A model generated the notes under the pieces. The model saw only the letters and a program-made list of their open reading frames with translations, ran no database searches and was not told the DNA's origin. Both the position numbers and the translations under genes were made by a program. A stretch of DNA of 64,000 bases from an uncultured Candidatus Saccharibacteria bacterium (GTDB taxonomy: Bacteria > Patescibacteriota > Minisyncoccia > Phycocordibacterales > UBA9973): contig CAZKJE010000001.1 in assembly GCA_964553015.1 (NCBI GenBank), forward strand, positions 94,278 through 158,277. The letters run 5' to 3'. Positions 18,910 through 39,381 of the stretch are shown here, one piece after another (the stretch's first letter is position 1; every line of letters begins with the position of its first letter).

Positions 18910-21900
18910 TTATAGAGTTATTTCAGATGCAGGCCGTTCAGGCTCTGAAGAGCCCTCAGGCTCGATGAGTTCAGGATCCGGCTCGGGTGTAGGTTCGGGA
19001 GCTGGCTCGAGGGCGGACTCTTCCACAACCTCACCTCCTCCTACCTCCTCCGAAGGAAGAGGTTCACTCACTTCACCCTCTCCTTCGGGGAGGGTTGGGG
19101 CAGGGTCTCCTTCTGGCGCGGGACTTGGCTCGGGTGTAGGTTCTGGGATTGGTTCAGGTGTAGGCTCCGGTTCTGGCTCGGTAGCTGGAACTGGGTCAGG
19201 CGTCATTCCCGCATTTTGCAACAGAGTTTGAAGCTGGTCTTCAGTCACGCAGGTTTCATTGATACAAAGTTTATTTTTAGCTTTAAAAGTTTCGGCGAAA
19301 ATTTCCCCTATGCCATTTGTAGCCTCCGAGAGCCAAGTGGAGATTTTGGCATAGATAGTATTGTTCAAATCTTGAATGGCCTTGGTGAGAATTGGAATCA
19401 TGCCGGTGGTGTTTAAAGACTTCATGCCGTTTTCGTCGGTAGCAACTAGTTTAGGAATAACGAGTTCTACTTCCTGGGCGATGAAGCCGAGATTTTTAAC
19501 TGTATCACCGTCTTCATATTTCCAGTTGAATAGGACGGGTCTTAGATTCATGACTGTGTCTAGACCATAAGTAATGTCTTCTATGTTTTTCTTCATTCTT
19601 TCGTCAGAAGTACAGGTGATGGTTCCTCCATCGGCTAGGGTACAGCCGGTAGCGTTGTCGCTGTTAAAGCGGGCGATGACTCCGGTGCCAGTGGCCAGGA
19701 CATCTAGGGCGTAGGTGGGATCTGATCTGCCGATGCCGACTCTTTTATTAGTAGAATCTACATTAAGAATGACAGTGGCATCTGTTTGTTGAACCTGAAA
19801 TGCAGTTGTGCTATTGGCACCTGGTTTAACTATTGTTGCCTTAGCCGCGTTATTTAATTTGCCAGCTTGAAGCATGATGTTACCGCCATATGACTTCAAA
19901 ATAACGTCATTATTCGGGAATGTTCCACTTTCTAGTCCTATATGAGCCACCCCTGAATTGTAGTTAATATAGCCAGGAAAAGTAGCATAACCATTGGCAT
20001 TAAGATTTAATGAACCATTATTCAGTATTTGTAAATCCGCTGAACTATTGCCCATAAAAGTGGCTATGGATGTACCATTTCCCAGTGAAGATTCTATAAG
20101 ATGCAGTGGGGCTGTTGGAGCTGTCGTGTTGATCCCCACTCTTCCCTCAAAATAGGCAGAGTTGGCTCGGGTGATGGTAGTGTTCGTTCCGGCAATTGGT
20201 TTAGGAACATATAACGAGAAAGCATCTGTAACCGTAATCGCATTCGTGGAAGCAAAAGTCGGAGCGCCGAAGCTGTTGGCGGTGCGGATGGCTACTGTTC
20301 CGGATGCTGCTGTGCTTGTGTCAGTATATGTGGCGGCATTTGAATCAAAAGCAATACCATCGGTGGTCCAAGCGGCAGCTGAAACATTGCCGTCAATTTG
20401 CAGATGAGAGGCGGGGGTGGCGGTGCCGATGCCGAGATTGCCATTATTCAAAATCGTCATTCTCTCGGTCAAAACTGAAGGAGCGGCGTCGGTGCCCGTC
20501 CAGAAAGAAAGTTGTCCCGGCACTCGGCTGTCGGCTATAGTGCCGGAAGAAATTGCTTTGATGGCTGCTCCCGTAATGTAGCCCGCGGCTCCTCCATAAC
20601 CTGTAAAGTTAATGACCCCCAGTTCATCAGCTGTGGTGATAACGGTAGGAGAAGCTCCGGTGCCTCTGGCTTTTCGGAAATTGAAGTCAAAACTGTCAGC
20701 GGAAGCGTTGGCTTGAGTAAAATATCCTTTTCCTAGGTCTACAGTATCGGAAGAGACGTGTAAAAGTCCTGCGGGTGCAGTGGTGCCGATGCCGACAGAA
20801 CCTTGTATTATTGCGCCGTTTGTTGGAGCAGCTGTAGCGGTGTAAGAGTTGCCTATTGAAACCCCACCGTTTACATTAAAGGCAGAGCCTGAATTAGTTG
20901 TTTTAATACTAACATTACCGCTTGCAGAGTCTGCAGATAATGCGGTGAGAGAGGGAGCCGCGCCTGCAGTACCATATAGAAGTTGGAAAAGACCGCCACC
21001 AGCATTGTCATTGGTTAATCGCCATCTGCTTCCACCAGTTTTACCGACTTCTATATATCCAGAGTTGCTCGATTCCACACGCAAACCGTCAACATTTCCG
21101 GTTAATATGTGCAGTTGAGAAGTTGGACTTGCCTTCCCAATCCCCACCTTTCCATCTCCCAAGACTGTAATCGCAGCTGTGTCGTCGTTGTTTGCAACTT
21201 GGAAAACCGTCTCTGCGGCACCCAAGTCAGCGATACCGGTGGTGCCGTTTGACTTAGCTCCGATAATTTTTATGGCAGGAGTAGCGTCAGTGGGATTAGT
21301 AGAACCCATCACACCTCTGATAGAGAGAGCTTGTGCATCGGTATCAGAAATAGTGGTCCACTGGACTCCTCCCTCTGTCGTTGAAAGAGATGTCAAATGT
21401 GAAAAGACATCAGTTTCTGCTAAAGTAGTTAGTCCATGTATTACATCATCATCGGACAAAGCAAAATCGGGAGTGGTGGTTGCTTCGTAAAGTTCTAATA
21501 TATAGTCGGGAGTAATGTCACCTATGCCGACGTTGCCCGTACTTGTATCCACATACAGATCATCCGTATTAACTGCAAAGTCTCCAGTGGTTGCAAGGGA
21601 AACATTTAAATTTGAGCCGGCAGCAGGAGTGATAGTGACTGCGCCAGTGGAAATGAGAGACGGAGTAGAAACTGAAGTAGGAGATAGAAGTTTAGTAGCG
21701 GACAAGGTGTCAGTCGCAAAGGTCAAGTCTGCATCGTCAGAAAGAATTCCAGCAACTCCGGCAAAAGTTACCCTCGTTGCAGTAAGTGCGGAATCAGTAA
21801 TATTTCCTCCGGATAAAGTCGTGTACGTGGCTGCGCCTAAGGCTGGGGTTACGAGAGCAGGCGAATTAGCAAAAACCAGCGCTCCCGTACCGGTTTCATC

Positions 21901-23118
21901 AGAAGCAGAAGTTAAAAGTTGCAAAGAAGTAATGGAACCCGTAGCTGTGCCATAGAGAGTACCGGAGGTTGGCAGAGTTACGTTCGTGGCGCCAGTTGAG
22001 GTAAGGGTAATGGAGTTTGTGGCAGAGGTGGCAAGAGTACTGCCTGCGCCCAGAGTAAGAGTACCGGTACCAGTCGTGATAGTGTTGCCGTTAATGGAAG
22101 CCGCGGTTAATGCTCCCCCTACTGTCAGGGCGTTAGTCGTATCATTGAAAGCAAAATTCGCATTGTCCTGCGCTAAATTTCCGGAAGCGTCCACGAAGAG
22201 GACAGAGTTAGCAGTACCGCTCCCGACTTCTCCGCCGATTTCCGGATTACCCACGTTCTTCCAGGTAGTGCCATTGTAAACCTGCATCTTGGAGACAGTG
22301 GTATTGAAAATGGTCATACCGGCTGCGGGAGTGAGCGCATCTCTCTGCGCCGTTGTTAAATTATTTATTTTTATGCCAGCATGGTTGGTACCGGAGAAGG
22401 AGATCAGTCCAGAAAAGGTGGTGGCTCCACCGACACCCAGACTGCCGGAGAGCGTAGTTATTCCCGTCACATCCAGATTGCCGGAGAGCGTAGTGGCTCC
22501 GGTGACGGACAAGGTTACCGTAGTCAGTAGGTCGGTATTCACTTGGTCACTAATAGAAGTGGATAAGCTGCTTAGACCATCCTCAATGGAATTTAAAAGT
22601 CCGTTGGTTTGATTATCAAAATCAGTTTGGGAGACGAAGGAAGAAGTGTCTGTACTGCTGCTGCTGCTTCCAGAGCTACCTGCTGGACCTCGGGGGCCAA
22701 CTGGGCCTTGCGGACCGGTATCTCCTTTGGGTCCTTGAGAGCCTTGGCTGTAAATTACATTCGCCGACTCCCTGCCGATGACTACCACAGGAGGGTTTTC
22801 GATTGGTATCGGAGGTGTATCGAATCCAGAAACTGTTCTTGGCGGAGTTTCTGGCGGAACAATTTGGAAAGTATTTCCATCCAGCAGAGAAGAAATTAGT
22901 CTTTGCAGACTGTCATTCATCGGCTCTACTATGCTGCTAGTGTAAAATTCCCAGGCATTTTCTGCCAGGTTAGCAGTCAAAGTAGAAGCTTTAACAGAGG
23001 CAGACTTGAGATCAAAATTAAAGTCAAACGCAGAAGCAGGATTAAATGCAGAAAAGAAAAATACCAACACAAAAAAGGATGGAAAAAGCGAACTTTTTAG
23101 AGAAGGTTTCTGGCGCAT
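18910..23118 (-). CDS. Giant secreted fibre protein (1402 aa): collagen-like Gly-X-Y triplets, long Thr/Gly/Ala-rich beta-repeat body, peptidase-S74 intramolecular-chaperone domain, Pro/Glu-rich tail
   Basis: Signal peptide. GSQGPKGDTGPQGPVGPRGPAGSSGSS is 9 consecutive GXY triplets. Near the C-terminus SDERMKKNIEDITYGLDTVMNLRPVLFNWKYEDG..LGFIAQEVELVIPKLV matches the S-D-x-R-x-K-x-N-I start of the Peptidase_S74 domain. Final tail PEPEPTPEPIPEPTPEPSP. Confidence 0.8.
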   Translation of the reverse strand: MRQKPSLKSSLFPSFFVLVFFFSAFNPASAFDFNFDLKSASVKASTLTANLAENAWEFYTSSIVEPMNDSLQRLISSLLDGNTFQIVPPETPPRTVSGFDTPPIPIENPPVVVIGRESANVIYSQGSQGPKGDTGPQGPVGPRGPAGSSGSSSSSTDTSSFVSQTDFDNQTNGLLNSIEDGLSSLSTSISDQVNTDLLTTVTLSVTGATTLSGNLDVTGITTLSGSLGVGGATTFSGLISFSGTNHAGIKINNLTTAQRDALTPAAGMTIFNTTVSKMQVYNGTTWKNVGNPEIGGEVGSGTANSVLFVDASGNLAQDNANFAFNDTTNALTVGGALTAASINGNTITTGTGTLTLGAGSTLATSATNSITLTSTGATNVTLPTSGTLYGTATGSITSLQLLTSASDETGTGALVFANSPALVTPALGAATYTTLSGGNITDSALTATRVTFAGVAGILSDDADLTFATDTLSATKLLSPTSVSTPSLISTGAVTITPAAGSNLNVSLATTGDFAVNTDDLYVDTSTGNVGIGDITPDYILELYEATTTPDFALSDDDVIHGLTTLAETDVFSHLTSLSTTEGGVQWTTISDTDAQALSIRGVMGSTNPTDATPAIKIIGAKSNGTTGIADLGAAETVFQVANNDDTAAITVLGDGKVGIGKASPTSQLHILTGNVDGLRVESSNSGYIEVGKTGGSRWRLTNDNAGGGLFQLLYGTAGAAPSLTALSADSASGNVSIKTTNSGSAFNVNGGVSIGNSYTATAAPTNGAIIQGSVGIGTTAPAGLLHVSSDTVDLGKGYFTQANASADSFDFNFRKARGTGASPTVITTADELGVINFTGYGGAAGYITGAAIKAISSGTIADSRVPGQLSFWTGTDAAPSVLTERMTILNNGNLGIGTATPASHLQIDGNVSAAAWTTDGIAFDSNAATYTDTSTAASGTVAIRTANSFGAPTFASTNAITVTDAFSLYVPKPIAGTNTTITRANSAYFEGRVGINTTAPTAPLHLIESSLGNGTSIATFMGNSSADLQILNNGSLNLNANGYATFPGYINYNSGVAHIGLESGTFPNNDVILKSYGGNIMLQAGKLNNAAKATIVKPGANSTTAFQVQQTDATVILNVDSTNKRVGIGRSDPTYALDVLATGTGVIARFNSDNATGCTLADGGTITCTSDERMKKNIEDITYGLDTVMNLRPVLFNWKYEDGDTVKNLGFIAQEVELVIPKLVATDENGMKSLNTTGMIPILTKAIQDLNNTIYAKISTWLSEATNGIGEIFAETFKAKNKLCINETCVTEDQLQTLLQNAGMTPDPVPATEPEPEPTPEPIPEPTPEPSPAPEGDPAPTLPEGEGEVSEPLPSEEVGGGEVVEESALEPAPEPTPEPDPELIEPEGSSEPERPASEITL

Positions 23119-30378: not shown

Positions 30379-30451
30379 GCCGGCATAGCTCAGTTGGTAG
30401 AGCGCCAATTTTGTAAATTGGATGTCGTGGGTTCGATCCCCTCTGCCGGCT
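30379..30451 (+). tRNA. tRNA-Thr (anticodon TGT)
   Basis: GCCGGCATAGCTCAGTTGGTAGAGCGCCAATTTTGTAAATTGGATGTCGTGGGTTCGATCCCCTCTGCCGGCT. 7-bp acceptor, anticodon stem CCAAT/ATTGG with loop TTTGTAA. One U-U mismatch in the T-stem. Confidence 0.75.
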
Positions 30452-30461
30452 CAAAAAATAC

Positions 30462-31448
30462 TTAAGAAGTAGACATACCGTCCATTTTTTTGCCTATAAC
30501 CTCTTCTGCTTCTGTAAGTTCCTCTTCAAAATTTTGAAGGAACAATATTTCTTCTTCTGTGAGTTTGCGTTTGGATTGGGCTCTTTTAAGCAGAGATATA
30601 TGCTCGTTTATGTCTTTGCGAAGCAGTTTAAAAGATTCATCCACCATTTTCCCCGTCTCGCGGCTCTCTTTGCGCAGGCGGCGAACGAGGCCTAAAGAGT
30701 TATACCAAACGTATGCTCCGCTTCCAAAAAGAACAGCGAGCGCGAATAGACCAAGAATGATAGCTGAAATATAATTTAGTACGAGGCCTATAAAATCAGC
30801 CAAAAATTTTGAAACAGTTCCCTGCTTCGTTTCTTCGGGATAGTAAGTCATAGCCGGAGGCTCAGTTATAAAATCCTCCAATATTATTTCTGTATTATTT
30901 TCTTCTACGACTGGCTTCACAGGTGACGAAGAAGGACTGGTAGATTCTAATACCTTAGATTCTATGGAAAAATTGGCTGTGCCAAGATTTTCAAGAATAT
31001 TGGTTCCCGCGCCGTCATTGGCCAATACCGAACCAGAGGTAAAATAGACTTTCGCCTGTCCGGAAGATTTAGCTCTGAAAGTTACGCTAATAATATTCCC
31101 TCTGCTGCCTATGAAGCCAGGGTTAAGGGCAATGCCTTCAAAGCCAAATGTTCCCTCTGCGTTGGAAAATGCCGGTTCCTGCACCCACAGACTTACTATT
31201 GACTTGGCTTTAGATATGCCGACTATTTCGAGCTTGTCGGCAGGAAAAGAAATGGTTCCCGAAACAGCATTGACCGTTTTGTCAGGACTTGAAACATAAA
31301 CAACAACAGAAAATGTATTGCCAACCGTCCGCGACAAAACAGCGGGAGAAAAATTGAGACTCGCCGCCATGGCTGTGAAAGGCAGTAAAAATAACATACC
31401 TAGAATAAAAGAAGAGATAAAAGTTTTTATATGTTTTTTCTTGTCCAT
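30462..31448 (-). CDS. Type I membrane protein with extracellular cohesin-like domain and cytoplasmic coiled-coil tail
   Basis: Start taken at MDKKKH (31448) to avoid overlap with the upstream gene. Signal peptide, then SLNFSPAVLSRTVGNTFSVVVYVSSPDKTVNAVSGTISFP (cohesin-like beta-sandwich signature), a TM near residue 230, and a charged C-terminal tail. Confidence 0.55.
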   Translation of the reverse strand: MDKKKHIKTFISSFILGMLFLLPFTAMAASLNFSPAVLSRTVGNTFSVVVYVSSPDKTVNAVSGTISFPADKLEIVGISKAKSIVSLWVQEPAFSNAEGTFGFEGIALNPGFIGSRGNIISVTFRAKSSGQAKVYFTSGSVLANDGAGTNILENLGTANFSIESKVLESTSPSSSPVKPVVEENNTEIILEDFITEPPAMTYYPEETKQGTVSKFLADFIGLVLNYISAIILGLFALAVLFGSGAYVWYNSLGLVRRLRKESRETGKMVDESFKLLRKDINEHISLLKRAQSKRKLTEEEILFLQNFEEELTEAEEVIGKKMDGMSTS

Positions 31449-32314
31449 ATTTTTGAAATAAGAATAACAATAGAAAGCGCTACAGCAATAATTATACCCC
31501 AATAAAACAAATATTCATACCACAAAAGAGAATGGGAAGGGGCAATTTTTACAGTTTGGGCATTGCCGGCGTTATCCACAGCCTGTATTATAATATGGCT
31601 TTTAAGCGCTTGATCTGCCAGGACATGGGGACTTTGAGCAATTCTCCAACGTGAAAGAAATGGAAATGATTTCAACCGATATTCTTTTATACGATAGTGA
31701 GATACACCCGAATTTTTATCTTGCGTGGCAAACACTACAAATGATTTTTCTAAAAAGAGGGCGGAGTCGCTTGACACAACCGGCGAGAAAATTTCAGGCA
31801 GTTCTTTGTCTATTATTGACTCCGAGCGCCTCTCACTGTCTCCCTGTCCGACAAAAATAGCTACATTGTCAACAACAGCGGAATCTTTAGTGCCCTCGCC
31901 ATCGTTTAAAAGCAATTCCAAATCTTTTATTTGGATCATGGCAATTCCCTCCTTTTTCGCTTCAAAAACAACGGAGAAAACAAGATTGTTAGTTCCGCTA
32001 AAACCGCCCGGCGTGATGCCGGAAAATGAAACAGCGCCGAGTTTTTCAAGATAAGGCTTTTCTATCCAAAAATTTATGGATGAGTTGCCGTCGCGGATCT
32101 CTTTAACTTCAAGCATATACGGCAAAAACACAAGCCGTCCTGAAAGAGCATTGATGGATTCTTGTGAATGCACGATAATGCTCACGGTAAATTGCTCCCC
32201 CGTCTTTATTTTTATTTTATTGGACTCAAGGCGAACTTCCGCGGCGGAAGCTGTGAGCGGAAAAAGAATAAGTATAGCTAAACTTATAAAAATATTTTTT
32301 ATAATATGATTCAT
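31427..32314 (-). CDS. Membrane-anchored cohesin-like domain protein (paralogue of the downstream gene)
   Basis: Signal peptide. AEVRLESNKIKIKTGEQFTVSIIVHSQESINALSGRLVFLPYMLEV is the same cohesin-like N-domain pattern. C-terminal TM. Confidence 0.55.
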   Translation of the reverse strand: MNHIIKNIFISLAILILFPLTASAAEVRLESNKIKIKTGEQFTVSIIVHSQESINALSGRLVFLPYMLEVKEIRDGNSSINFWIEKPYLEKLGAVSFSGITPGGFSGTNNLVFSVVFEAKKEGIAMIQIKDLELLLNDGEGTKDSAVVDNVAIFVGQGDSERRSESIIDKELPEIFSPVVSSDSALFLEKSFVVFATQDKNSGVSHYRIKEYRLKSFPFLSRWRIAQSPHVLADQALKSHIIIQAVDNAGNAQTVKIAPSHSLLWYEYLFYWGIIIAVALSIVILISKIWTRKNI

Positions 32315-32315
32315 A

Positions 32316-33347
32316 TTAACCCGTCCAATTAAATGCCATGATGCTAAAATCTACTAGATTAACCTTGCCATCGCCGTTCAGATCGCTTCCCGCCGGAGGA
32401 TTAGGGCGCTTATACCAATAAGCTGCTATTGAAAAATCAATAAGATTAACCCTATTATCGCCATTCGTGTCCCCTCTTGGGACATTTTTAGGCAATTCAT
32501 CATTAATATTCTTTGTCCCTACTATGAAGCCTGCGACTTTTCCGAATGCGGTTATTTCTCCGCCTAGTGAGGCCTTGGACTTTGTTTGATGCTGTCCTGC
32601 TTCAAGAACTGATGTGTCAAAGTTCACCAGATAACCTCCGCTTGTATCTGCTATTTTTTTTATAAAAAATTCCTCTTCAGAACTTACGCTGATTGTTATT
32701 TCCGAAGAAGGAGCGCTCTGCCCGAAAATGGCAATGTTGTCTCCCCTCCGTACTTCGCTTTTATCGGTTGCAATTGTCGGTGCGATGAAGATACTGCCTA
32801 CTTTAGTGGTAACGCCGGATGTTACGCTGACCGGAAAGGCAAGAAGCGAAGAGCGTGTTCCTTTGCTATCTTCAGAATAAATACTGAAAATATAGTTCCC
32901 GCCAGAAATATTTGAAATGGTAATTTGAAAATCAGCGTCCGCGTCGGCCACACTTGTCGCCACAACTTGGGCGTCTTTCAGGAGCGTTATAATGCTCCTC
33001 GGGTATGCTCTGCCCGTAAATACGACATTAGTGGAAGGAATGGTGGTTTGACCTGAGTAGTTCCCCCCTCCTCCGCCGCCGCCACCCCCGCCGCCGCTTG
33101 AAACGCATTGCGAAGTATTAAAAGTGCAGGCAGAAGTACAAGACAATGTTCCGCTGGAAAACCCCAAAGAAGAGCAGGAAGCCCCGCCCAAATTAGCGCC
33201 GTCGCATTGCTCTCCCCCCGCAATAATCCCATCTCCGCAACCGGGAACTGTTGCCGTTATCTCAACGGTTATGGCAAACGCTGGGAGCGGTCCTGCGATA
33301 AAAATAAGAAAAAACGTATATATAAATAAATTTTTTATACCATTCAT
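32316..33347 (-). CDS. Secreted dockerin-containing protein with Myxococcus-type Cys-rich repeat, poly-Gly linker and Ig-like domain
   Basis: Signal peptide. CGDGIIAGGEQCDGANLGGASC matches the Cys-rich repeat CGDG..(x)GEeCDdGN. G12 run. C-terminus DTNGDNRVNLIDFSIAAYWY...DLNGDGKVNLVDFSIMAFNW is two dockerin type-I Ca-binding repeats (D.NgDg.VN..D). Confidence 0.65.
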   Translation of the reverse strand: MNGIKNLFIYTFFLIFIAGPLPAFAITVEITATVPGCGDGIIAGGEQCDGANLGGASCSSLGFSSGTLSCTSACTFNTSQCVSSGGGGGGGGGGGNYSGQTTIPSTNVVFTGRAYPRSIITLLKDAQVVATSVADADADFQITISNISGGNYIFSIYSEDSKGTRSSLLAFPVSVTSGVTTKVGSIFIAPTIATDKSEVRRGDNIAIFGQSAPSSEITISVSSEEEFFIKKIADTSGGYLVNFDTSVLEAGQHQTKSKASLGGEITAFGKVAGFIVGTKNINDELPKNVPRGDTNGDNRVNLIDFSIAAYWYKRPNPPAGSDLNGDGKVNLVDFSIMAFNWTG

Positions 33348-34363
33348 TCATTTTGTTGTTGGCGCATTGCTTGGCCGATGATAAACCGATTGTATTTCCG
33401 AAGTCCGGCCCTGCCGATAAATCCAAGTACTAAAATAATAAGCGCCAGTATTGAAAGCAGCTGCCATGGCATTATGAAAAAATTATATGAAGCGTCCGCT
33501 GTCTGATTTGTCTCTCCCCAAGAAAGATTGAGCTTTGCGGTATACCAGCCAAAATGAAAATTTTTTAATTGATCCAAGGCTGTTTTAAAGAATCCCGGAT
33601 TTGATTTTCCTTCATTTGCCTTCATTAAGTCCTTCCCCCATACAACGCTGAATTTCCTAGTACTGCCAGGAAGCACGCTTCCCTGGTTTTCGTTGGCTAG
33701 AAGCGTCGCAGAAGTAAATCTGAATGTATTTTTAACTTTGATTTCTCCCAATGGAACCACGCGATTGCCGCCGATGTTGTTAAGGCGATATTCAAAAGTT
33801 ACGGGAAGCGAGCTTGCTACTCGGCTGTTTTCTTTGACAAAAAAGTCCAAAAGGCCCCCACCCTCCGCCACTTCTCCGGAAACTCTAAGCAGAACCAAAA
33901 TACCTATCTTCCCCCCAATTGACACTTCACCCCCGCCTTCTGCTTTGGGTGGCTGACTGCCGAAGAATATGGCGGCAAAATATCCTCCTGGATCAGTGCC
34001 ATTGGGAACGGTAATGGAATAAGGAACAATAACTCGCTCTCCGGATTTGAGCGTAACGCTCGCATCCGTCTTTATCCAGGTGGCAAGGCCGTCCTTTGCC
34101 CCTACGAAGTATGGAGCACCAGAATCACCTCTCGGTTCAAAATTCTCGTAGGAGGTATAAAAAATCTTTTCGCTGTCCTGTTCGTTGAAAAGTTCAATTT
34201 CGCCCCCAACTGTCTGCCCAGGATCAGCAGTTATCTCAATCTTGGCTGGAGAAACAGTCAAGGCAAGCGCCTTGTTTGAAACAGCGAACAACAGGCCGAT
34301 TAAGAGAATTATGTGGAGTGTGTTTTTCATAGGTGTAATGAAGGTACTGTGTCCCATATACAC
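33344..34363 (-). CDS. DUF916/DUF3324-like (WxL-interacting-protein-like) surface protein with C-terminal TM anchor
   Basis: Signal peptide. ALTVSPAKIEITADPGQTVGGEIELFNEQDSEKIFYTSYENFEPRGDSGAPYF..ATWIKTD..VTLKSGERVIVPYSITVPNGTDPGGYFAAIFF resembles DUF916. C-terminal TM plus a short basic tail, as in CscA-type anchors. Confidence 0.45.
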   Translation of the reverse strand: MYMGHSTFITPMKNTLHIILLIGLLFAVSNKALALTVSPAKIEITADPGQTVGGEIELFNEQDSEKIFYTSYENFEPRGDSGAPYFVGAKDGLATWIKTDASVTLKSGERVIVPYSITVPNGTDPGGYFAAIFFGSQPPKAEGGGEVSIGGKIGILVLLRVSGEVAEGGGLLDFFVKENSRVASSLPVTFEYRLNNIGGNRVVPLGEIKVKNTFRFTSATLLANENQGSVLPGSTRKFSVVWGKDLMKANEGKSNPGFFKTALDQLKNFHFGWYTAKLNLSWGETNQTADASYNFFIMPWQLLSILALIILVLGFIGRAGLRKYNRFIIGQAMRQQQNE

Positions 34364-34368
34364 CTATG

Positions 34369-35409
34369 TTAAAAATTCGCAGTTGCTACATAGGTTAATG
34401 TGGCGGTGTATGCTCCGGCTTCGGTACTTGATGTAATGTTTCCAAGATAACGCACTGAATAAGTGGTGTTGGCTGAAGCGCCGGAAGCGGAAGCGACCTG
34501 GTCCGGAAAAGCGGCGGTGTCAAAAGCAAAACCGGCTGCGGCATAGGGAGCAGTTACACTGCCGGAACCGCCGGAAGCGGTCATGCGCAGGCCGAACTGT
34601 TCTGTGCCGGCTGATGAAGCTGTGTTAGTAGCGCCGATTGCGGTAATGGTATTACCGCCGGAAGTAAGTGTGGCCCCATTTAAAGTCATAGTATAACCAT
34701 TGGCAGCATTTGTGCCGACAACCAGCGTATGCGCTTCTGTTTCAGTTGCTGAACCGTTCGTATCGCCGGTAGCAAAGAAGTCGTCCGCGGCGGTCAAGGT
34801 GCCGAAACCGATTGAGTTGTCCGAGATGGTAAAAGTAAGCGATTCGTCTACGGTCGCTGTTACCGCAACTTGGTCATCGGTTAAAATGTTAATGACAATA
34901 TCTCCCGTATCGCCGAATGTACCTGAAACTGCGATGGTATATGAAGCCGCAGAAGTTGCGTTGGTTGAGTTTGTGCTGTCGTAGGTGAGAATTATCTTAT
35001 CACTCGCCGCAACAACAGCTGTACCAACGCCGTCTGTCGGCGCAGTGAGCGTTAGAATACGATTTTGAGTACCGGAGAAAACTGCGCCCCAGGCAGTAGC
35101 GCTCGGACTTGCGGCTAACGTTTCAGTACTTTCAGCGCCCGTCGTGGCGCCGTGGGTAAAAGTTACTGTGCCTATTGTCTTTGAAGTGAAGTTAAAGTCC
35201 GAAGGAAAGGTTATTATTATGGTATCGGTTGAATCACCTGCTCCTGTCGGGGTGGTAAACTTTATAGTGTGACTCGAAAGAGTGCTTACCTTTTGAGAAG
35301 ACAGGGTATCTGATTTGCTTGTCAAAGCGGCCGCATTTGCCACCTCTTTAGGAAAAGCAAAAACGAGAAGCGCAAAAATTAGAATCGCACCGGTTAGTTT
35401 ATTTGACAT
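34369..35409 (-). CDS. Secreted surface protein with ~165-aa C-terminal domain shared with the next gene (candidate divergent WxL-like domain)
   Basis: Signal peptide. The C-terminal domain LTFTISDNSIGFGTLTAADDFFATGDTNGSATETEAHTLVVGTNAANGYTMTLNGATLTSGGNTITAIGATNTASSAGTEQFGLRMTASGG..TTYSVRYLGNITSSTEAGAYTATLTYVATANF is about 80% identical to the C-terminus of 35534..37168. Confidence 0.6.
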   Translation of the reverse strand: MSNKLTGAILIFALLVFAFPKEVANAAALTSKSDTLSSQKVSTLSSHTIKFTTPTGAGDSTDTIIITFPSDFNFTSKTIGTVTFTHGATTGAESTETLAASPSATAWGAVFSGTQNRILTLTAPTDGVGTAVVAASDKIILTYDSTNSTNATSAASYTIAVSGTFGDTGDIVINILTDDQVAVTATVDESLTFTISDNSIGFGTLTAADDFFATGDTNGSATETEAHTLVVGTNAANGYTMTLNGATLTSGGNTITAIGATNTASSAGTEQFGLRMTASGGSGSVTAPYAAAGFAFDTAAFPDQVASASGASANTTYSVRYLGNITSSTEAGAYTATLTYVATANF

Positions 35410-35533
35410 AATAATTTAAAAAATTTTTAAAAATAAAATTATAATCTCGACTTAAAATTAAACGAAAAGTTACAATATATTATATTAAAATCTCATTATA
35501 ATAGCCAACTTCGCCTGTGGATAACATTTTTAA

Positions 35534-37168
35534 TCAAAAACTGGCGGTAATGACATAGGTTAACACCGCACTGTAACTGCCTGCCTCGGTGTTGGCGGTA
35601 ATGTTGCCTAAGTAGCGAACTGAATAGGTCGTGGAAACATCGTCTCCATCCGCATCGGAAGCCACTTGGTCTGGAAAATTGCCAGTGTCTAAGGCAAAAC
35701 CTGCGGCAGCATAAGGGCTAGACACTGCACCGTTTCCTCCGGAAGCAGTCATGCGGAGTCCAAATTGCTCCGAGCCGGCAGAAGAAGCAGTATTTGTTCC
35801 GCCGATTGCGGTAATGGTATTACCGCCTGAAGTCAAAGTTGTCCCGTTTACTGTGATTGCATACCCGCTTCCGGCATTAGTGGATGCTGTGATAGTGTGC
35901 GCCTCAACTTCTGTCGCCGAACCGGTACCAGCTCCATTGGCAAAGAAATCATCTGCCGAAGTAAGCGTGCCGAAGCCGATAGTGTTGTCGGAGATACTAA
36001 ACGTGAGAGATTGCGCTGCGCCAGTGGTAAAAGTGTTGCAAGTTGACGAATCGGTAAAACTTCCATTCCCGTCGGGATCTTTGGCTGATGCTTTCCACCA
36101 ATATTGAGTGCTTGCTGACAGCGCGGTTTGGGTCAAAAAGCTTCCTTGGGTGCTGGAAGTATAACAGGCGGTTGGAGCGGCAGTGCAGGTTGCGTTGCTT
36201 CCTGTCCAGCCGGTTGAGCTTACTGCCTGGTCGTTGGTTTGCACTACCGTGGTACACCCGCTGTTTGAATAAATTGTAACTTTATAACTTAAATTATCTA
36301 CGGTTGTGTCAGCATCGGTAGCAGTCATTGTAAAGGTTGGTGTCACTGAAACACCGGTAGCGGCATTGGCCGGCGAATCCTGCGTAGGCGCGTTTGGCGG
36401 CTTATTGTAAGTAAGAATGACTTTTCCTACGGCTCCGCTTCCGCCGCTAATATTAGTTCCATCAGCCGCTCCTCCGCCTCCGCCTCCATTTCCAGAGGCT
36501 GGAGCAGAACCAGCGGCGTTAGCAGAAGCACCGCCATCACCGCCATGTCCTCCGCCTGTTGGAGTGTTTGCAGTTGGATAAGTTGCAGTACTCCATGTTT
36601 GAGGACCGCTCCACCCGTCCGCAGCAGTGCCGGCAGAAGAACCTCCGTAACCGCCTAGGCCGGCGTTGTTATTTCTTCCCTTTTCTCCTTGTCCTCCGCT
36701 AAATTTTGTATCGCCTACTCCCGAGGCTGCCGCGCCGCCAGCCCCGCCAGCTGGCGGTGTTCCCGTTGAACAGGCGCCGGGAGAACCTCCTTTTGCTAAA
36801 ACGGTTGAAGTATTTACAAACCAGCTGTCGCCTCCGGCGGTTGACGCGGTGCAACCAGCGTTTCCTGTACCAGCCGCACCAACCGTAACTGTATAATTAT
36901 TACCTGGAATTACAGTAGTTGTGTTGTCTTTTGAATATGCTCCGCCGCCTCCGCCGCCTCCGCCATCCGTAGTTGCGTTTTCTCCTCCTCCTCCGCCTCC
37001 GCCTCCCCAAACTTCAGCAGTGACAGAAGTGACGCCTGTCGGGGCTGTCCAGGTCGTTGAACTGGTAAAAGTTTCGGTAGTACTTGCCTCTGCAATTATT
37101 ATCTGGACAAATAAAAAGATAGAAAAAGATAGAAAAAATAATTTTGGCAGGTATTTTATTATTTTCAT
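35534..37168 (-). CDS. Secreted surface protein: Gly-rich segments, FN3/Ig-like middle, C-terminal domain paralogous to the 34369..35409 C-terminus
   Basis: Signal peptide. GGGGGGGENATTDGGGGGGGG runs. C-terminus LTFSISDNTIGFGTLTSADDFFANGAGTGSATEVEAHTITASTNAGSGYAITVNGTTLTSGGNTITAIGGTNTASSAGSEQFGLRMTASGG..TTYSVRYLGNITANTEAGSYSAVLTYVITASF. Confidence 0.6.
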   Translation of the reverse strand: MKIIKYLPKLFFLSFSIFLFVQIIIAEASTTETFTSSTTWTAPTGVTSVTAEVWGGGGGGGGENATTDGGGGGGGGAYSKDNTTTVIPGNNYTVTVGAAGTGNAGCTASTAGGDSWFVNTSTVLAKGGSPGACSTGTPPAGGAGGAAASGVGDTKFSGGQGEKGRNNNAGLGGYGGSSAGTAADGWSGPQTWSTATYPTANTPTGGGHGGDGGASANAAGSAPASGNGGGGGGAADGTNISGGSGAVGKVILTYNKPPNAPTQDSPANAATGVSVTPTFTMTATDADTTVDNLSYKVTIYSNSGCTTVVQTNDQAVSSTGWTGSNATCTAAPTACYTSSTQGSFLTQTALSASTQYWWKASAKDPDGNGSFTDSSTCNTFTTGAAQSLTFSISDNTIGFGTLTSADDFFANGAGTGSATEVEAHTITASTNAGSGYAITVNGTTLTSGGNTITAIGGTNTASSAGSEQFGLRMTASGGNGAVSSPYAAAGFALDTGNFPDQVASDADGDDVSTTYSVRYLGNITANTEAGSYSAVLTYVITASF

Positions 37169-38643
37169 TTAATATTAAAATTGGCAGTTTCAAAAACCGC
37201 AAAAAGCGGGTATTCGGCTATATCAAAAGCTTCACAACTTTCTTTTGTTTCCCCTAAGCTTATCGCTGTTTTATAATCTCCCGCCCTTAAATTAAAAATC
37301 GCTGTTGGCAGCGGTAAGGCCGTAGAAACGCATTCAGAGATAAAATTTTCTGTCTCCGTATAAACAGCTATTCCCCAATAATTCATAACGTCTATTATTT
37401 GACGGGGTACCCCTATTTCCCTTGATTCAAGAGCTATCAAATCATAGAAGGCGGCAGAGATGTTTATGGAAACTGGTGATAAAATGTTTGTCCCGTCTGG
37501 TATCCGCTGAAAAATTATTTTATCCTGGACATTGCCAATTTTAATAGCATCAGTTTCATCTTTGGACTCAATAGTTTGTTCATCCGTAAATCCACCTAAG
37601 GCCAGTGCAGGCTGCTCTTCTAACACATTGAGATTATCTTCATTTAAATCAGCTTCAATTGGCAGACTTTCGTATTCCACTTCCAGCCAAACAGAATCCA
37701 GGTAGATTGTAGGCATATCGTCAAAAGTCGGCAGAGTATGGATGGCTATTTGCACGCGTTCCAGATCTGTGATGGTTGTAAAAATATCCATCGGCATTTC
37801 AAAGCTTACGTCATTTGTTATATCTGATACATATCCTATTGTGCTCCAGTTGCTTCCATCAAGGGTGTACAGAACTTTAAGCAGAGCTGCAGTAGTAGTT
37901 GTTTCTGTTTCTAAGGTCGTGTCTTCAGGGATTTCAGAAGTGGTCCCATTAATATTTTCAGCAGATATTTCTTCTGTAGTTTCAGTAGAATTTTCTTCAC
38001 TTGCGTCAACCTCTTGGGCATGGACTCTAGAGAAAAATAATTTATTTAAAAAAGAAACTTCCTCGCTAGCCGGCAATTCTTCCGCTGGTTCTTCTTCTGT
38101 AGGAAGAACTTCCTGCTCCATTACTGCAGGCTCATCGGCAACAGGTTCTGGAGTTTCTTCTGTTATGGGAATTTCCTCCGGGATTTCTGGCGCGATTTCT
38201 TCTTCCGACTCAGAAATATTCTCTTCTGATTCCGGAGCATCTGACTCTTCAGCTATAACAGGCTCGCCTGGAGTGGCCCAGGAGAACTTTAGGATTATTT
38301 TCTTTTGAAATGCATCTATGGGTATTTCGCCCGTAAATTCGCCGCAAAAGATTTGCCCGACAGCATTTGAAATTGATGCTGAATTTGAGTCATTGTAATT
38401 ATTCGCGTCTCCATCTGTTACGTCCGGCGCACCGACAGCTTTATCTGTATTCTTCCATCCGCCAAGACAAGAAGCCGGATAAAAAGAAGAAATTTGCGCA
38501 TTCGCATTACCCGCGTTTCTCAATAGGAAAATTCCCACTATTAAAATAACGACAGACAGGCAAAAGGTACCTAATACTTTGCTTGAATCTGAAATAGTAT
38601 CAGATTTTTTTATGATTTTTTTACGTATATCTCCTGGAAGCAT
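37165..38643 (-). CDS. Hypothetical membrane-anchored acidic (Glu/Pro/Thr-rich) protein
   Basis: 492 aa. N-terminal TM, long low-complexity acidic stretch (EEIAPEIPEEIPITEETPEPVADEP..), structured C-terminal ~250 aa. Confidence 0.5.
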   Translation of the reverse strand: MLPGDIRKKIIKKSDTISDSSKVLGTFCLSVVILIVGIFLLRNAGNANAQISSFYPASCLGGWKNTDKAVGAPDVTDGDANNYNDSNSASISNAVGQIFCGEFTGEIPIDAFQKKIILKFSWATPGEPVIAEESDAPESEENISESEEEIAPEIPEEIPITEETPEPVADEPAVMEQEVLPTEEEPAEELPASEEVSFLNKLFFSRVHAQEVDASEENSTETTEEISAENINGTTSEIPEDTTLETETTTTAALLKVLYTLDGSNWSTIGYVSDITNDVSFEMPMDIFTTITDLERVQIAIHTLPTFDDMPTIYLDSVWLEVEYESLPIEADLNEDNLNVLEEQPALALGGFTDEQTIESKDETDAIKIGNVQDKIIFQRIPDGTNILSPVSINISAAFYDLIALESREIGVPRQIIDVMNYWGIAVYTETENFISECVSTALPLPTAIFNLRAGDYKTAISLGETKESCEAFDIAEYPLFAVFETANFNIK

Positions 38644-38685: not shown

Positions 38686-39381
38686 CTATTGCTTGATTTC
38701 CTCATCTGCAGTTTTATTTTCTATTCCCTGAAGCTTGAAAGATTCTTTGACTTTTGCAGACAGCTCCTCTACCTCGTGAAATCCAGTCAGCACATCGTCG
38801 TCTATGACCAAGGCCGGCAGCTCGGTATCTTTTATTTTATAGATCTGGATCATAGCTTTTACGGCCGAAAGATCTATACTATAGTCAAAAGAATAGACCC
38901 GGAGCTCCGGATATTCCTCGCGCAGTTTAGACAAGACCAGGCTTTCTTCCCTGCAGAGAGTACAGTTTTCCGCTGTGGTGTAAAAATAAAGAATAAAAGC
39001 AGATTTTACTTTGCAGCGGTCAGAAATTTTTTTTGCTAAAAGATAATCCTTGATCTGGAGAAGCGAGTAATATTTTTTTAAATAAGATACTTCTGCTGTA
39101 TCGCCCAAGTTCTCCTCGCTCCACTCGAGCTTGCTGCCTAGCTCGGAAAGCTCGCTTGAAAAAACGGAGTCTGAAATATTCTTGCAGGAAAGATCTGACA
39201 AAAGTGAAAACTGCGTTTCTGAAGAAAGAATGTCTATCGCAATTTTATCCTGTATGTTTTTTAATTGGTCTATTTTTTTGTCGCCAAAATAATTGCTGAC
39301 ATAGCTCGCAGTAAAGAAAAGGGCTACAGTAATTAAAAAAACTATTAAATATTTTCTCCAGTCTATATTGTTTGAGTCCAT
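38686..39381 (-). CDS. Membrane-anchored thioredoxin-fold protein (CxxC)
   Basis: N-terminal TM. C-terminal ILYFYTTAENCTLCREESLVLSKLREEYPELRVYSFD has a CTLC active-site motif in a Trx/Grx-like context. Confidence 0.55.
   Translation of the reverse strand: MDSNNIDWRKYLIVFLITVALFFTASYVSNYFGDKKIDQLKNIQDKIAIDILSSETQFSLLSDLSCKNISDSVFSSELSELGSKLEWSEENLGDTAEVSYLKKYYSLLQIKDYLLAKKISDRCKVKSAFILYFYTTAENCTLCREESLVLSKLREEYPELRVYSFDYSIDLSAVKAMIQIYKIKDTELPALVIDDDVLTGFHEVEELSAKVKESFKLQGIENKTADEEIKQ

Follow-up and report, generated by a model that had tools for sequence, protein, structure and literature searches.

A probable Parcubacteria version of the CPR Pam pilus operon with a putative cohesin-dockerin anchor

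What kind of structure is built by a tight block of seven genes for exported proteins in the genome of an ultrasmall bacterium of the Parcubacteria group? Few uncultivated bacteria are as abundant as the Parcubacteria, whose means of reaching and holding hosts are, to our knowledge, poorly understood. The block occupies positions 30462-38643 of the window, by which we mean the whole 64-kb stretch of DNA analysed here. An initial annotation had described it as a csc-like surface-display cluster carrying WxL-like, cohesin-like and dockerin modules, and its general view of a modular, non-covalent surface-assembly locus is supported. The analysis presented below suggests a different identity, and we consider the cluster to be probably the Parcubacteria counterpart of the CPR Pam pilus operon, with a filament that may be anchored via cohesin-dockerin docking.

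The locus comprises seven tightly packed ORFs (G1-G7), all on the minus strand, as are the features given below; their co-directional arrangement had been correctly annotated. Successive ORFs are joined by overlaps or gaps of 4, 124, 11, 4, 1 and 22 nt, and from G4 to G7 the genes abut or overlap at every junction. An N-terminal hydrophobic segment was present in all seven proteins, in agreement with the signal peptides previously assigned to them, and an additional C-terminal transmembrane (TM) helix was observed in G4, G6 and G7; the membrane segments are single helices throughout. These genes are not chance ORFs, since G3 has more than 1287 homologues (60-90% identity) and the G4 family contains 7913 representatives at 50% clustering. 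A promoter-like site, TTGGCT-18-TATAAT (35479..35508), lies directly upstream of G3 in the one intergenic gap of any size (35410-35533); it is regarded as a hint only because the consensus scan overall was not enriched over shuffled sequences.

The Pam pilus is a recently discovered, thin donor-strand-exchange filament with a cryo-EM structure from Ca. Mycosynbacter amalyticus (Saccharimonadia), and in its pilin a linker donor strand joins an N-terminal beta-sandwich to an open-grooved C-terminal domain (Troman et al. 2026, preprint, doi 10.64898/2026.03.03.709456). The C-terminal domains of G3 (34372-34839) and G2 (35537-36007) scored 87.5 and 73.9 bits, respectively, against the model NF058581 (CPR_Pam_pilin_C), above its curated cut-off of 55 bits. 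The same model matched all 59 C-terminal domains collected from related loci (best E 4.9e-49), while weak Pfam Fimbrial matches were seen in 6 of the 59 (best E 0.0025). By sequence, the domain common to G2 and G3 is the Pam pilin C-terminal domain, a characterised family different from the WxL domain proposed earlier, and thus an outcome that the initial annotation had itself named as counting against it. The two proteins are paralogues sharing this domain, as had been noted, with an identity of 74.5% over 157 aa instead of approximately 80% over 165 aa. Since the shared domain is that of the Pam pilin, a donor-strand-exchange pilus operon fits the locus better than a csc-like cluster.

G3 (34369..35409; 346 aa) is the candidate major pilin, with a signal peptide and an N-terminal domain, and its length and domain order are consistent with a two-domain Pam pilin. 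Between the domains lies the putative linker strand QVAVTATV (34849-34872), and the corresponding motif, DDQVxVTATV, was found in 36 of 40 G3 orthologues. The AF2 model of G3 had a pLDDT of 54, falling below 50 in the linker region. The alignment to the PamT model places another segment, LTFTISDN, inside the C-terminal domain, and the conserved Ser/Thr-rich mature N-terminus of G3 is an alternative candidate for the donor.

The candidate tip adhesin G2 (35534..37168; 544 aa) also bears a signal peptide, and its Gly_rich_2 domain (36407-37066; Pfam, 64.3 bits) is separated from the Pam pilin C-terminal domain by a middle region containing Cys. It has no QVxVTATV linker strand, and the motif was detected in just 4 of 38 G2-like proteins. 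In other loci, genes at the G2 position encode N-terminal parts of 235 to 2390 aa and retain the C-terminal domain. No equivalog of PamT, a single-domain tip pilin (NF058579; cut-off 240 bits), was detected: the best scores were 39 and 26.5 bits and spanned just the domain, and the candidate tip protein here is the two-part G2. The G2 start overlaps by 4 nt the preceding gene, G1 (37165..38643; 492 aa), and G1 orthologues precede the tip gene in 11 loci. The earlier description of an acidic TM protein applies well to G1, which is N-terminally anchored (TM at residues 23-41) with a net charge of -67. An acidic/Pro-rich insert splits its conserved beta-rich domain, which contains Cys, and no family was matched in Pfam or NCBIfam.

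G4 (33344..34357) is probably read from a start at 34357, giving a 337-aa protein modelled with a pLDDT of 84.7 as two beta-sandwiches and a TM helix (33398-33466). The model resembles both WxLIP and the chaperones of chaperone-usher systems. With two PapD-like domains and a membrane helix at the C-terminus, the modelled G4 has the architecture of PamC and PamD, which are PapD-like chaperones with a C-terminal TM (Troman et al. 2026). Its closest solved relative is the E. faecium WxLIP, which was also the sole match in a PDB sequence-profile search; WxLIP consists of DUF916 (PF06030), DUF3324 (PF11797) and a TM helix (PDB 9i1y, 9i25; Hassan et al. 2023, PMC10599100). As regards the annotation of G4 as a DUF916/DUF3324-like protein with a C-terminal TM, the helix is confirmed and the fold and the family point the same way, but the window's own G4 sequence gave no match to Pfam DUF916/DUF3324. 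Its second domain matched fn3_5 and NPCBM_assoc by sequence, and not DUF3324. In the model, an F1-G1-like loop is disordered and is followed by the last strand of domain 1, IGILVLLRVSGEV (33869-33907); the WxLIP loop is likewise disordered prior to partner binding (Hassan et al. 2023).

Downstream of the chaperone gene, G5 (32316..33347; 343 aa, with a signal peptide) encodes a secreted adaptor and candidate pilus terminator. It carries the tandem type I dockerin already annotated (32337-32474; Dockerin_1 28.6 bits, GA 22.9), with the repeats DTNGDNRVNLID and DLNGDGKVNLVD. Dockerin_1 was present in 34 of 36 G5 orthologues, and the family profile matched solved dockerins, including 2y3n_B at E 1.6e-5. 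The protein also contains one or more Big_6 Ig-like domains (Pfam, 30.8 bits) and a Gly linker of 11 residues, previously counted as 12. The Cys-rich repeat, assigned earlier to a Myxococcus type, stayed below the cut-offs (TIGR02232 17.8 versus 20.8; DUF4215 16.7 versus 27). At the mature N-terminus, the strand ITVEITATV (33246-33272) resembles the pilin linker strand QVAVTATV. This strand is the most conserved part of the G5 N-terminal region and is retained in orthologues without the Cys-rich repeat, with the poly-Gly always placed after it. When a 12-column HMM of the G3 linker was run against approximately 800 ORFs, the ten best non-G3 matches were the mature N-termini of G5 orthologues, with weak individual E-values (0.009 to 8) for a short, beta-strand-like motif of 9 residues. 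Rank 11 was the N-terminus of the post-chaperone protein of locus L049, which has its own TM.

The last two genes encode putative membrane-anchored cohesin-like proteins with signal peptides. G7 (30462..31448; 328 aa) more likely starts at ATG 31448, as on the Logan contig, than at TTG 31502. Its cohesin domain (30999-31334) scored 25.6 bits against Pfam Cohesin (PF00963; GA 24.1), and beyond its TM (30729-30785) lies a helical cytoplasmic tail, conserved and about 75 aa long. Among 29 G7 orthologues, Cohesin was matched in 16 (best E 2.1e-7) and Big_13 in 22, and the best match to a solved cohesin had an E-value of just 0.5. In G6 (31427..32314; 295 aa), a cohesin-like domain (31835-32242) precedes a second beta domain, and the TM (31454-31510) is C-terminal. 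The window's G6 had no Pfam match of its own, Cohesin included; its assignment is based on Cohesin matches among its orthologues (11 of 31; best E 7.7e-6) and on paralogy with the G7 family (hhalign probability 100%, E 2.4e-48). The C-terminal TMs of both proteins and the Pfam match of G7 agree with the earlier annotation, and the assignment of G6/G7 to the cohesins by profile is marginal.

A sample of 49 species-level loci showed a recurring order of a variable tip protein, G3, G4, G5, G6 and G7. G4 follows G3 in about all loci, and the downstream genes were present in 36 of 42 (G5), 30 of 41 (G6) and 27 of 40 (G7) loci; in 34 of 42 loci, the C-terminal domain also occurs in an upstream protein whose head varies. 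The dockerin and, more marginally, the cohesin-like modules are borne out by the profile searches, and both belong to a conserved operon core. Cohesin-like genes with a TM lie directly downstream in 33 of the 36 loci with a dockerin-bearing post-chaperone gene and in none of the six dockerin-less loci, counts that are not independent because the loci are phylogenetically related. In the divergent, dockerin-less loci L041 and L049, the post-chaperone protein combines the strand and its own TM in a single chain; in L050, also dockerin-less, it has its own TM and no strand motif. Three related loci (L013, L018 and L021) encode the dockerin protein and no adjacent cohesin gene.

From these parts, we infer a scheme of polymerisation, assembly order and contacts of G5 with the pilin and with G6/G7, in which G5 would terminate the pilus and dock the filament onto the membrane-bound cohesins. 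All G1-G7 products would be exported by Sec, and the chaperone G4, held in the membrane by its C-terminal helix, would cap newly exported pilins at their incomplete Ig-like C-terminal domain. G2, with its variable adhesin head, would initiate the filament at the tip, since it has no donor strand. The major pilin G3 would then polymerise, each subunit inserting its linker strand into the C-terminal domain of its predecessor. Mature G5 starts with a copy of that strand, which may plug the last pilin; beyond it, the flexible Gly linker and Ig domains would lead to the dockerin, which would dock the finished filament on the cohesin domains of G6 and G7. G5 and G6/G7 would together take the place of PamR, the terminator of Mycosynbacter, a single chain in which two FnIII domains lie between an N-terminal strand and a C-terminal TM (Troman et al. 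2026). The presence of two cohesin proteins and just one dockerin protein counts against this anchor model, as does the conserved cytoplasmic tail of G7, for which the model offers no role. Such a filament would probably serve to reach and attach to a host or substrate.

The genes downstream of the chaperone could also be read as a neighbour of a Pam-type pilus. G5-G7 would then form a separate, co-transcribed cohesin-dockerin complex, for example a membrane-tethered Ig-domain adhesin that does not touch the filament, and the pilus would be released or anchored by the chaperone or another protein. Cohesin and dockerin modules are widespread outside cellulosomes, which is compatible with such a complex, as are the three loci where G5 lacks adjacent cohesins. 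Mycosynbacter Pam pili, moreover, detach easily (Troman et al. 2026). Against this stand the specific likeness of the G5 mature N-terminus to the pilin linker strand, highest in conservation at that very site, and the divergent loci in which a protein with the strand and its own TM occupies the same position, following the logic of PamR. The tight conservation of gene order and the overlapping genes argue in the same direction, and we consider an unconnected G5-G7 complex rather unlikely.

A second alternative retains the WxL/Csc type of display known from Firmicutes, with G2 and G3 as monomers held by strand complementation with G4, no polymer, and the cohesin-dockerin pair as a parallel display device. 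The G2-G3-G4 trio does mirror the commonest WxL cluster, composed of a long WxL protein, a short WxL protein and WxLIP (Hassan et al. 2023): G4 has the WxLIP architecture, a large and a small protein share a C-terminal domain in each cluster, and the predicted binding of WxLIP is a strand insertion that completes an incomplete beta-sandwich. However, the partner domain differs. No W-x-L motif occurs in G2 or G3, Pfam WxL (PF13731) is absent from the 25 families listed at E-values up to 10 for the same 59 domains that the Pam pilin model matches in full, and a PDB profile search with the pilin C-terminal domain gave no match, the WxL chain of 9i25 included. An LPxTG motif, as in a CscD-like protein, was found in none of the seven proteins, and the second domain of G4 departs from DUF3324 in sequence. 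WxL proteins are thought to be peptidoglycan-bound monomers and not filaments, whereas Mycosynbacter proteins with the domain of G2 and G3 form filaments by cryo-EM (Troman et al. 2026). The strongly conserved inter-domain strand of G3, absent from G2, fits a polarity of polymerisation, and the identity among G3 homologues is as expected of a self-assembling subunit. A WxL/Csc-like monomer display is accordingly judged improbable.

The chaperone-usher pili (Pap/Fim, Csu, Caf1, CFA/I) share with the proposed pilus the logic of donor-strand complementation and exchange and a two-domain tip adhesin. They differ in that outer membrane and usher are absent here, with no match to Usher or another porin-like family among the seven proteins (Pfam, NCBIfam), and in that the chaperone is membrane-tethered. 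The pilins here have an extra N-terminal domain, and the donor strand would be an internal linker instead of an N-terminal extension, as in the Pam pilin (Troman et al. 2026). The cohesin-dockerin part is comparable to cellulosomal and non-cellulosomal pairs, given that the type I dockerin of G5 has two Ca-loop repeats and matches 2y3n, 5nrm and 1daq, and that G7 and its relatives match Pfam Cohesin. In contrast to those pairs, the locus has no enzymes, each cohesin protein carries a lone cohesin domain held by its C-terminal TM helix, and the proposed cargo is the pilus. Cellulosome-like nutrient capture, in which membrane cohesin scaffolds would gather enzymes or binding proteins tagged with dockerins for the breakdown or binding of polymers, accounts for the two domain types but is highly improbable, as Pfam and NCBIfam searches of the operon returned neither a glycoside hydrolase nor a carbohydrate-binding module, a strict dockerin calcium-loop pattern matched only G5 in the six-frame translation of the 64-kb window, one cohesin domain per cohesin protein excludes a multi-cohesin scaffoldin, and the operon partners are pilin and chaperone genes.

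The favoured Pam-type pilus reading draws on several shared features: the pilin C-terminal domain above the curated cut-off, a putative two-domain pilin with a conserved inter-domain strand beside a tip-type protein without it, a PapD-like chaperone with a C-terminal TM helix, Sec signals on all parts with neither an usher nor a trans-envelope machine, and a terminator concept of N-terminal strand plus membrane anchor. The differences are also clear. The host lineage belongs to the Parcubacteria group, with RpoB 96% identical to Ca. Nomurabacteria, whereas Pam-type pili have so far been reported mainly from Saccharimonadia and Microgenomatia (Troman et al. 2026). There is a single chaperone gene here versus two in Mycosynbacter, the tip protein bears a Gly_rich_2 head, and no ATP synthase genes were found among the examined window ORFs, unlike in the neighbourhood reported in the preprint. 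The anchor seems to be split between one secreted protein that bears the dockerin and two membrane proteins that bear the cohesins; no PamR equivalog or single-chain PamR-type protein was found in the window, where G5 ends in the dockerin and the TMs are on G6 and G7. The earlier statement that the locus is not a described system no longer applies to the pilin and chaperone core, already known from the 2026 preprint, but it stands for the cohesin-dockerin part, as the preprint makes no mention of cohesin, dockerin, WxL or DUF916. New are the proposed cohesin-dockerin anchor, the link to WxLIP and the occurrence in Parcubacteria.

We tentatively propose, as a possibility held with less than even confidence, a broader combined view. 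A donor-strand-exchange pilus may be fastened to the cytoplasmic membrane non-covalently by cohesin-dockerin, with G5 as terminator and G6/G7 as sockets, and the Pam chaperones and WxLIP may be homologous, representing two branches of one ancient strand-complementation family in bacteria without an outer membrane. The probable Parcubacteria form of the Pam-type pilus is very widespread, its chaperone family alone counting about 7,900 representatives at 50% clustering, and the analysis offers a testable model that assigns a tip, a shaft, a chaperone, a terminator and an anchor. Should the anchor model be true, this would be the first cohesin-dockerin docking that holds a pilus and an example of a plug-and-socket pair replacing a covalent membrane anchor. 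The link between G4 and WxLIP, in turn, joins two literatures that do not cite each other and suggests that the WxL clusters of enterococci, listeriae and lactobacilli share the strand-complementation chemistry of pili.

The ORF calls placed seven genes on the minus strand at 30462-38643, numbered G1 to G7 in the direction of transcription: an acidic anchored protein (G1), a candidate tip adhesin (G2), a candidate major pilin (G3), a PapD/WxLIP-like candidate chaperone (G4), a dockerin protein (G5) and two cohesin-like membrane proteins (G6 and G7). Overlaps of 4 nt occur at G1/G2, where the G1 stop overlaps the G2 start, and at G4/G5; G5 and G6 are separated by 1 nt, G6 and G7 overlap by 22 nt, and the 124 nt before G3 represent the sole real intergenic gap. 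A promoter-like TTGGCT-18-TATAAT was located in this gap by a consensus scan and is regarded as a hint only, because the scan overall was not enriched relative to shuffles. All seven products possess an N-terminal hydrophobic segment, and G4, G6 and G7 also carry a C-terminal transmembrane helix. An independent Logan contig of 8.7 kb yielded the same seven gene calls, and the coding sequences of G7 and G4 probably start at 31448 and 34357, respectively. The operon is bounded downstream by a plus-strand tRNA-Thr(TGT) gene (30379-30452), 10 nt from the G7 stop.

The flanking genes are housekeeping genes (rpsB, tsf, rpoB, rpoC, dnaG and rpoD). The lineage placement rests on the neighbours of RpoB, which shares 96% identity with a protein of Ca. 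Nomurabacteria and whose other named neighbours belong to Paceibacterota or Minisyncoccia, that is, the Parcubacteria group. The record titles of 'binchicken' MAGs across the related loci L002-L050 (Saccharibacteria, Peribacteria, Gammaproteobacteria) disagree, while the pilins there are 60-89% identical; these titles appear unreliable, since they are mutually discordant and conflict with the RpoB placement. Directly upstream of G1, a 231-aa protein (38686-39381, minus strand) with an N-terminal transmembrane segment and a CTLC (CxxC) motif gave no Pfam match, and only L002, the closest relative, keeps it in this place. It could act as a thiol-disulfide oxidoreductase on G2 and G5, both of which contain Cys. 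Further along the minus strand, a 1402-aa protein (18910-23118) that carries, towards its C-terminal end, a Peptidase_S74 intramolecular-chaperone domain as in tail fibres or endosialidases is another large, probably trimeric surface fibre, and a 1295-aa surface protein (6009-9896) includes three YDG domains, Big_12, Bact_surface_Ig-like domains and a C-terminal PG_binding_1. G1 itself (37165-38643, minus strand) is anchored N-terminally, has a net charge of -67 and matched no known family in Pfam or NCBIfam. Its orthologues share a conserved domain (FYPxxCLGGW, QIFCG, YTLDGxNW and PTIYLDSxWLEVxYE, in this order) interrupted by a variable acidic/Pro-rich insert.

G2 and G3 have a C-terminal domain in common. 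The initial annotation had described this domain as about 80% identical over about 165 aa and WxL-like; its existence was confirmed, with the figures corrected to 74.5% over 157 aa, while the WxL identity fails on the criterion that the annotation itself had set, a match to another characterised family. Both proteins instead match NCBIfam NF058581 (CPR_Pam_pilin_C, Pam pilus system pilin subunit) at 73.9 bits for G2 and 87.5 bits for G3, with a cut-off of 55, as do all 59 non-redundant copies of the domain from related loci (best E 4.9e-49). TasA/camelysin, SCPU and WxL were weighed for the domain, and none is among the 25 listed Pfam families matching the 59 copies; six of these copies weakly match the chaperone-usher "Fimbrial" family, and neither a W-x-L nor an LPxTG motif occurs in G2 or G3. 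Pfam searches with G1, G3, G4 and G6 returned zero matches, and NCBIfam contains no model recognising G1, G4, G5, G6 or G7. The single sequences of G2, G3 and G4 produced no meaningful match in the PDB, and a profile built from the C-terminal-domain alignment matched nothing there. More than 1287 homologues of G3 were found at 60-90% identity; its AlphaFold2 model, built from 48 homologues that are all at least 66% identical, was poor (pLDDT 54), and the Foldseek hits obtained with it were discarded as noise (best E 0.05).

NF058581 originates in a 2026 preprint, in which cryo-EM of filaments of Ca. Mycosynbacter amalyticus revealed the pilins PamA and PamB; the pam operon of that bacterium also includes genes for PamC and PamD, which are PapD/FimC-like chaperones with a transmembrane helix at the C-terminus, for the tip pilin PamT, which has a single domain, and for PamR, a terminator/anchor that combines an N-terminal strand with two FnIII domains and a C-terminal transmembrane helix (doi 10.64898/2026.03.03.709456). 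Pam was reported mainly in Saccharimonadia and Microgenomatia, and the preprint mentions none of cohesin, dockerin, Paceibacteria, WxL or DUF916 (doi 10.64898/2026.03.03.709456). Given the shared pilin C-terminal domain of G2 and G3 and the PamC/PamD-like architecture of G4, the locus probably encodes a Pam-type pilus core.

DDQVxVTATVxxS is the inter-domain segment common to the G3 orthologues, and LTFSISDNxIGFGTL comes next. LTFSISDN is covered by the alignment to the PamT model; since PamT is a single-domain pilin lacking a linker, LTFSISDN is assigned to the C-terminal domain, and QVxVTATV is therefore the candidate donor strand. This strand is present in 36/40 G3 orthologues versus 4/38 G2-type proteins, in which LTFSISDN is kept; its absence fits a putative tip subunit, which would accept a strand and donate none. 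The fold of G3 and the identity of the donated strand are candidate assignments based on family membership and motif conservation; the mature N-terminus of G3, conserved and rich in Ser and Thr, is an alternative donor. A similar strand, ITVEITATV, forms the mature N-terminus of G5, where x-V-x-I-T-A-x-V is kept in the orthologues, including those lacking the Cys-rich repeat, and is always followed by a Gly-rich linker. When a 12-column HMM built from the G3 linker was searched against the approximately 800 ORFs of the loci, G5 N-termini were the ten best non-G3 matches, although individual E-values are weak for a strand of nine residues. Rank 11 was the N-terminus of the post-chaperone gene product of the divergent locus L049. 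This protein and its counterpart in L041 follow the PamR design: each has a signal peptide and the strand, then a small domain, and carries a C-terminal transmembrane helix of its own. Both loci are without cohesin genes. When loosened, the motif is also found in the final strand of domain 1 of G4, IGILVLLRVSGEV, the site of strand donation in PapD-type chaperones; this resemblance is treated as weak, because the stricter linker HMM has no match there.

In G5, Big_6 and a tandem type I dockerin both scored above the Pfam cut-off. The dockerin, already proposed in the initial annotation, is found in 34/36 G5 orthologues (Dockerin_1), and the family profile matches solved dockerins at E 1.6e-5. 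The Cys-rich repeat is a resemblance that remains below threshold in both models, and the Gly run is present but consists of 11 residues, not 12. Of the two membrane proteins annotated as cohesin-like, G7 just passes the Pfam Cohesin cut-off (25.6 versus 24.1; 16/29 orthologues match), whereas G6 has no match of its own and is linked to the family only through its orthologues (11/31) and its clear paralogy to G7 (hhalign E 2.4e-48). The closest solved cohesin was reached at E 0.5 at best, and with the narrow G7 score and the indirect link of G6, the assignment is considered reasonable but marginal. The G7 tail (30462-30728, minus strand) is a conserved cytoplasmic helical segment of about 75 aa after the transmembrane helix, with the consensus KRxLTxEE. 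Most orthologues are longer (500-660 aa) and have Big_13 Ig-like domains separating the cohesin from the transmembrane helix; the G7 of this window (328 aa) does not. In L033 (6871-9468) and L034 (13072-15684), the equivalents of G6 and G7 form one ORF of about 870 aa, either a natural fusion or an assembly/frame artefact.

With each GTDB species represented by a single genome, a scan yielded 49 loci; denominators count the loci with enough sequence, and the counts are not independent since the loci are related. Just upstream of G3, 34/42 loci encode a protein that combines the Pam C-terminal domain with an N-terminal part that varies greatly (235-2390 aa). G4 follows G3 in essentially all loci, and G5 (36/42), G6 (30/41) and G7 (27/40) come next; the cohesin and dockerin genes thus belong to the conserved operon core and are not passengers. 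This recurrence counts against the closest rival explanation, a pilus beside an unrelated cohesin-dockerin module. Cohesin-like genes with a transmembrane helix lie immediately downstream in 33/36 loci whose post-chaperone gene bears a dockerin and in 0/6 loci without one. The exceptions, the related species of L013, L018 and L021, have G5 with a dockerin and no adjacent cohesin gene, as a module independent of the pilus might; unrelated genes occupy the usual position, some 2 kb past the match to G3 in the downstream direction, and the cohesin genes of these species may lie elsewhere in their genomes. The chances that the cohesin-dockerin pair is the predicted pilus anchor are about even.

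A second rival, display of monomers in a WxL-like manner, draws on the relationships of G4 and is opposed by the NF058581 identity of G2 and G3. The G4 AlphaFold2 model (46 homologues, pLDDT 84.7) contains two beta-sandwich domains and, at the C-terminus, a long helix, with a disordered loop at residues 134-150 before the last strand of domain 1. Foldseek against the PDB ranked first E. faecium WxLIP (9i1y; 9i25, the complex with a long WxL protein; E 6e-12), followed by RbmA and the chaperone-usher chaperones CsuC, Caf1M, CfaA, DraB and SafB; these matches and the model underlie the assignment of a PamC/PamD architecture. In the G4 family (7913 representatives at 50% clustering, E up to 0.001), PF06030 (WxLIP_PGBD, DUF916) is the commonest Pfam match, in 10/46 close and 38/106 diverse members (best E 2.9e-7). 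A diverse family profile retrieved only EfmWxLIP1 from the whole PDB sequence set (E 0.0012), and a narrow one retrieved no match. The DUF916 call of the initial annotation therefore holds as a distant relationship by fold and family, but G4 is not itself a Pfam member. A disordered WxLIP hairpin was predicted to become a strand completing the WxL beta-sandwich (Hassan et al., PMC10599100), the same chemistry as chaperone donor-strand complementation; our literature search found no paper connecting Pam chaperones with WxLIP/DUF916. A cellulosome-like complex was rejected, as the Pfam and NCBIfam searches gave no enzymes in the operon and a strict calcium-loop pattern scan gave a single dockerin in the 64-kb window.

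From the strand motif, domains, synteny and PamR-like proteins, we propose a Pam-type pilus in which G4 would chaperone the pilins, G2 would cap the filament tip and G3 would build the shaft. The N-terminal strand of G5 would terminate the chain, and its dockerin would dock onto the membrane-anchored cohesins G6 and G7. The view that this is not a described system stands in part: the pilin and chaperone core is of the kind described in 2026 and encoded in NCBIfam, but the cohesin-dockerin module lies outside that description. The locus adds to the Pam system an operon form found across Parcubacteria, a cohesin-dockerin module that is conserved and probably has an anchoring role, and a relationship between the chaperone and WxLIP/DUF916.
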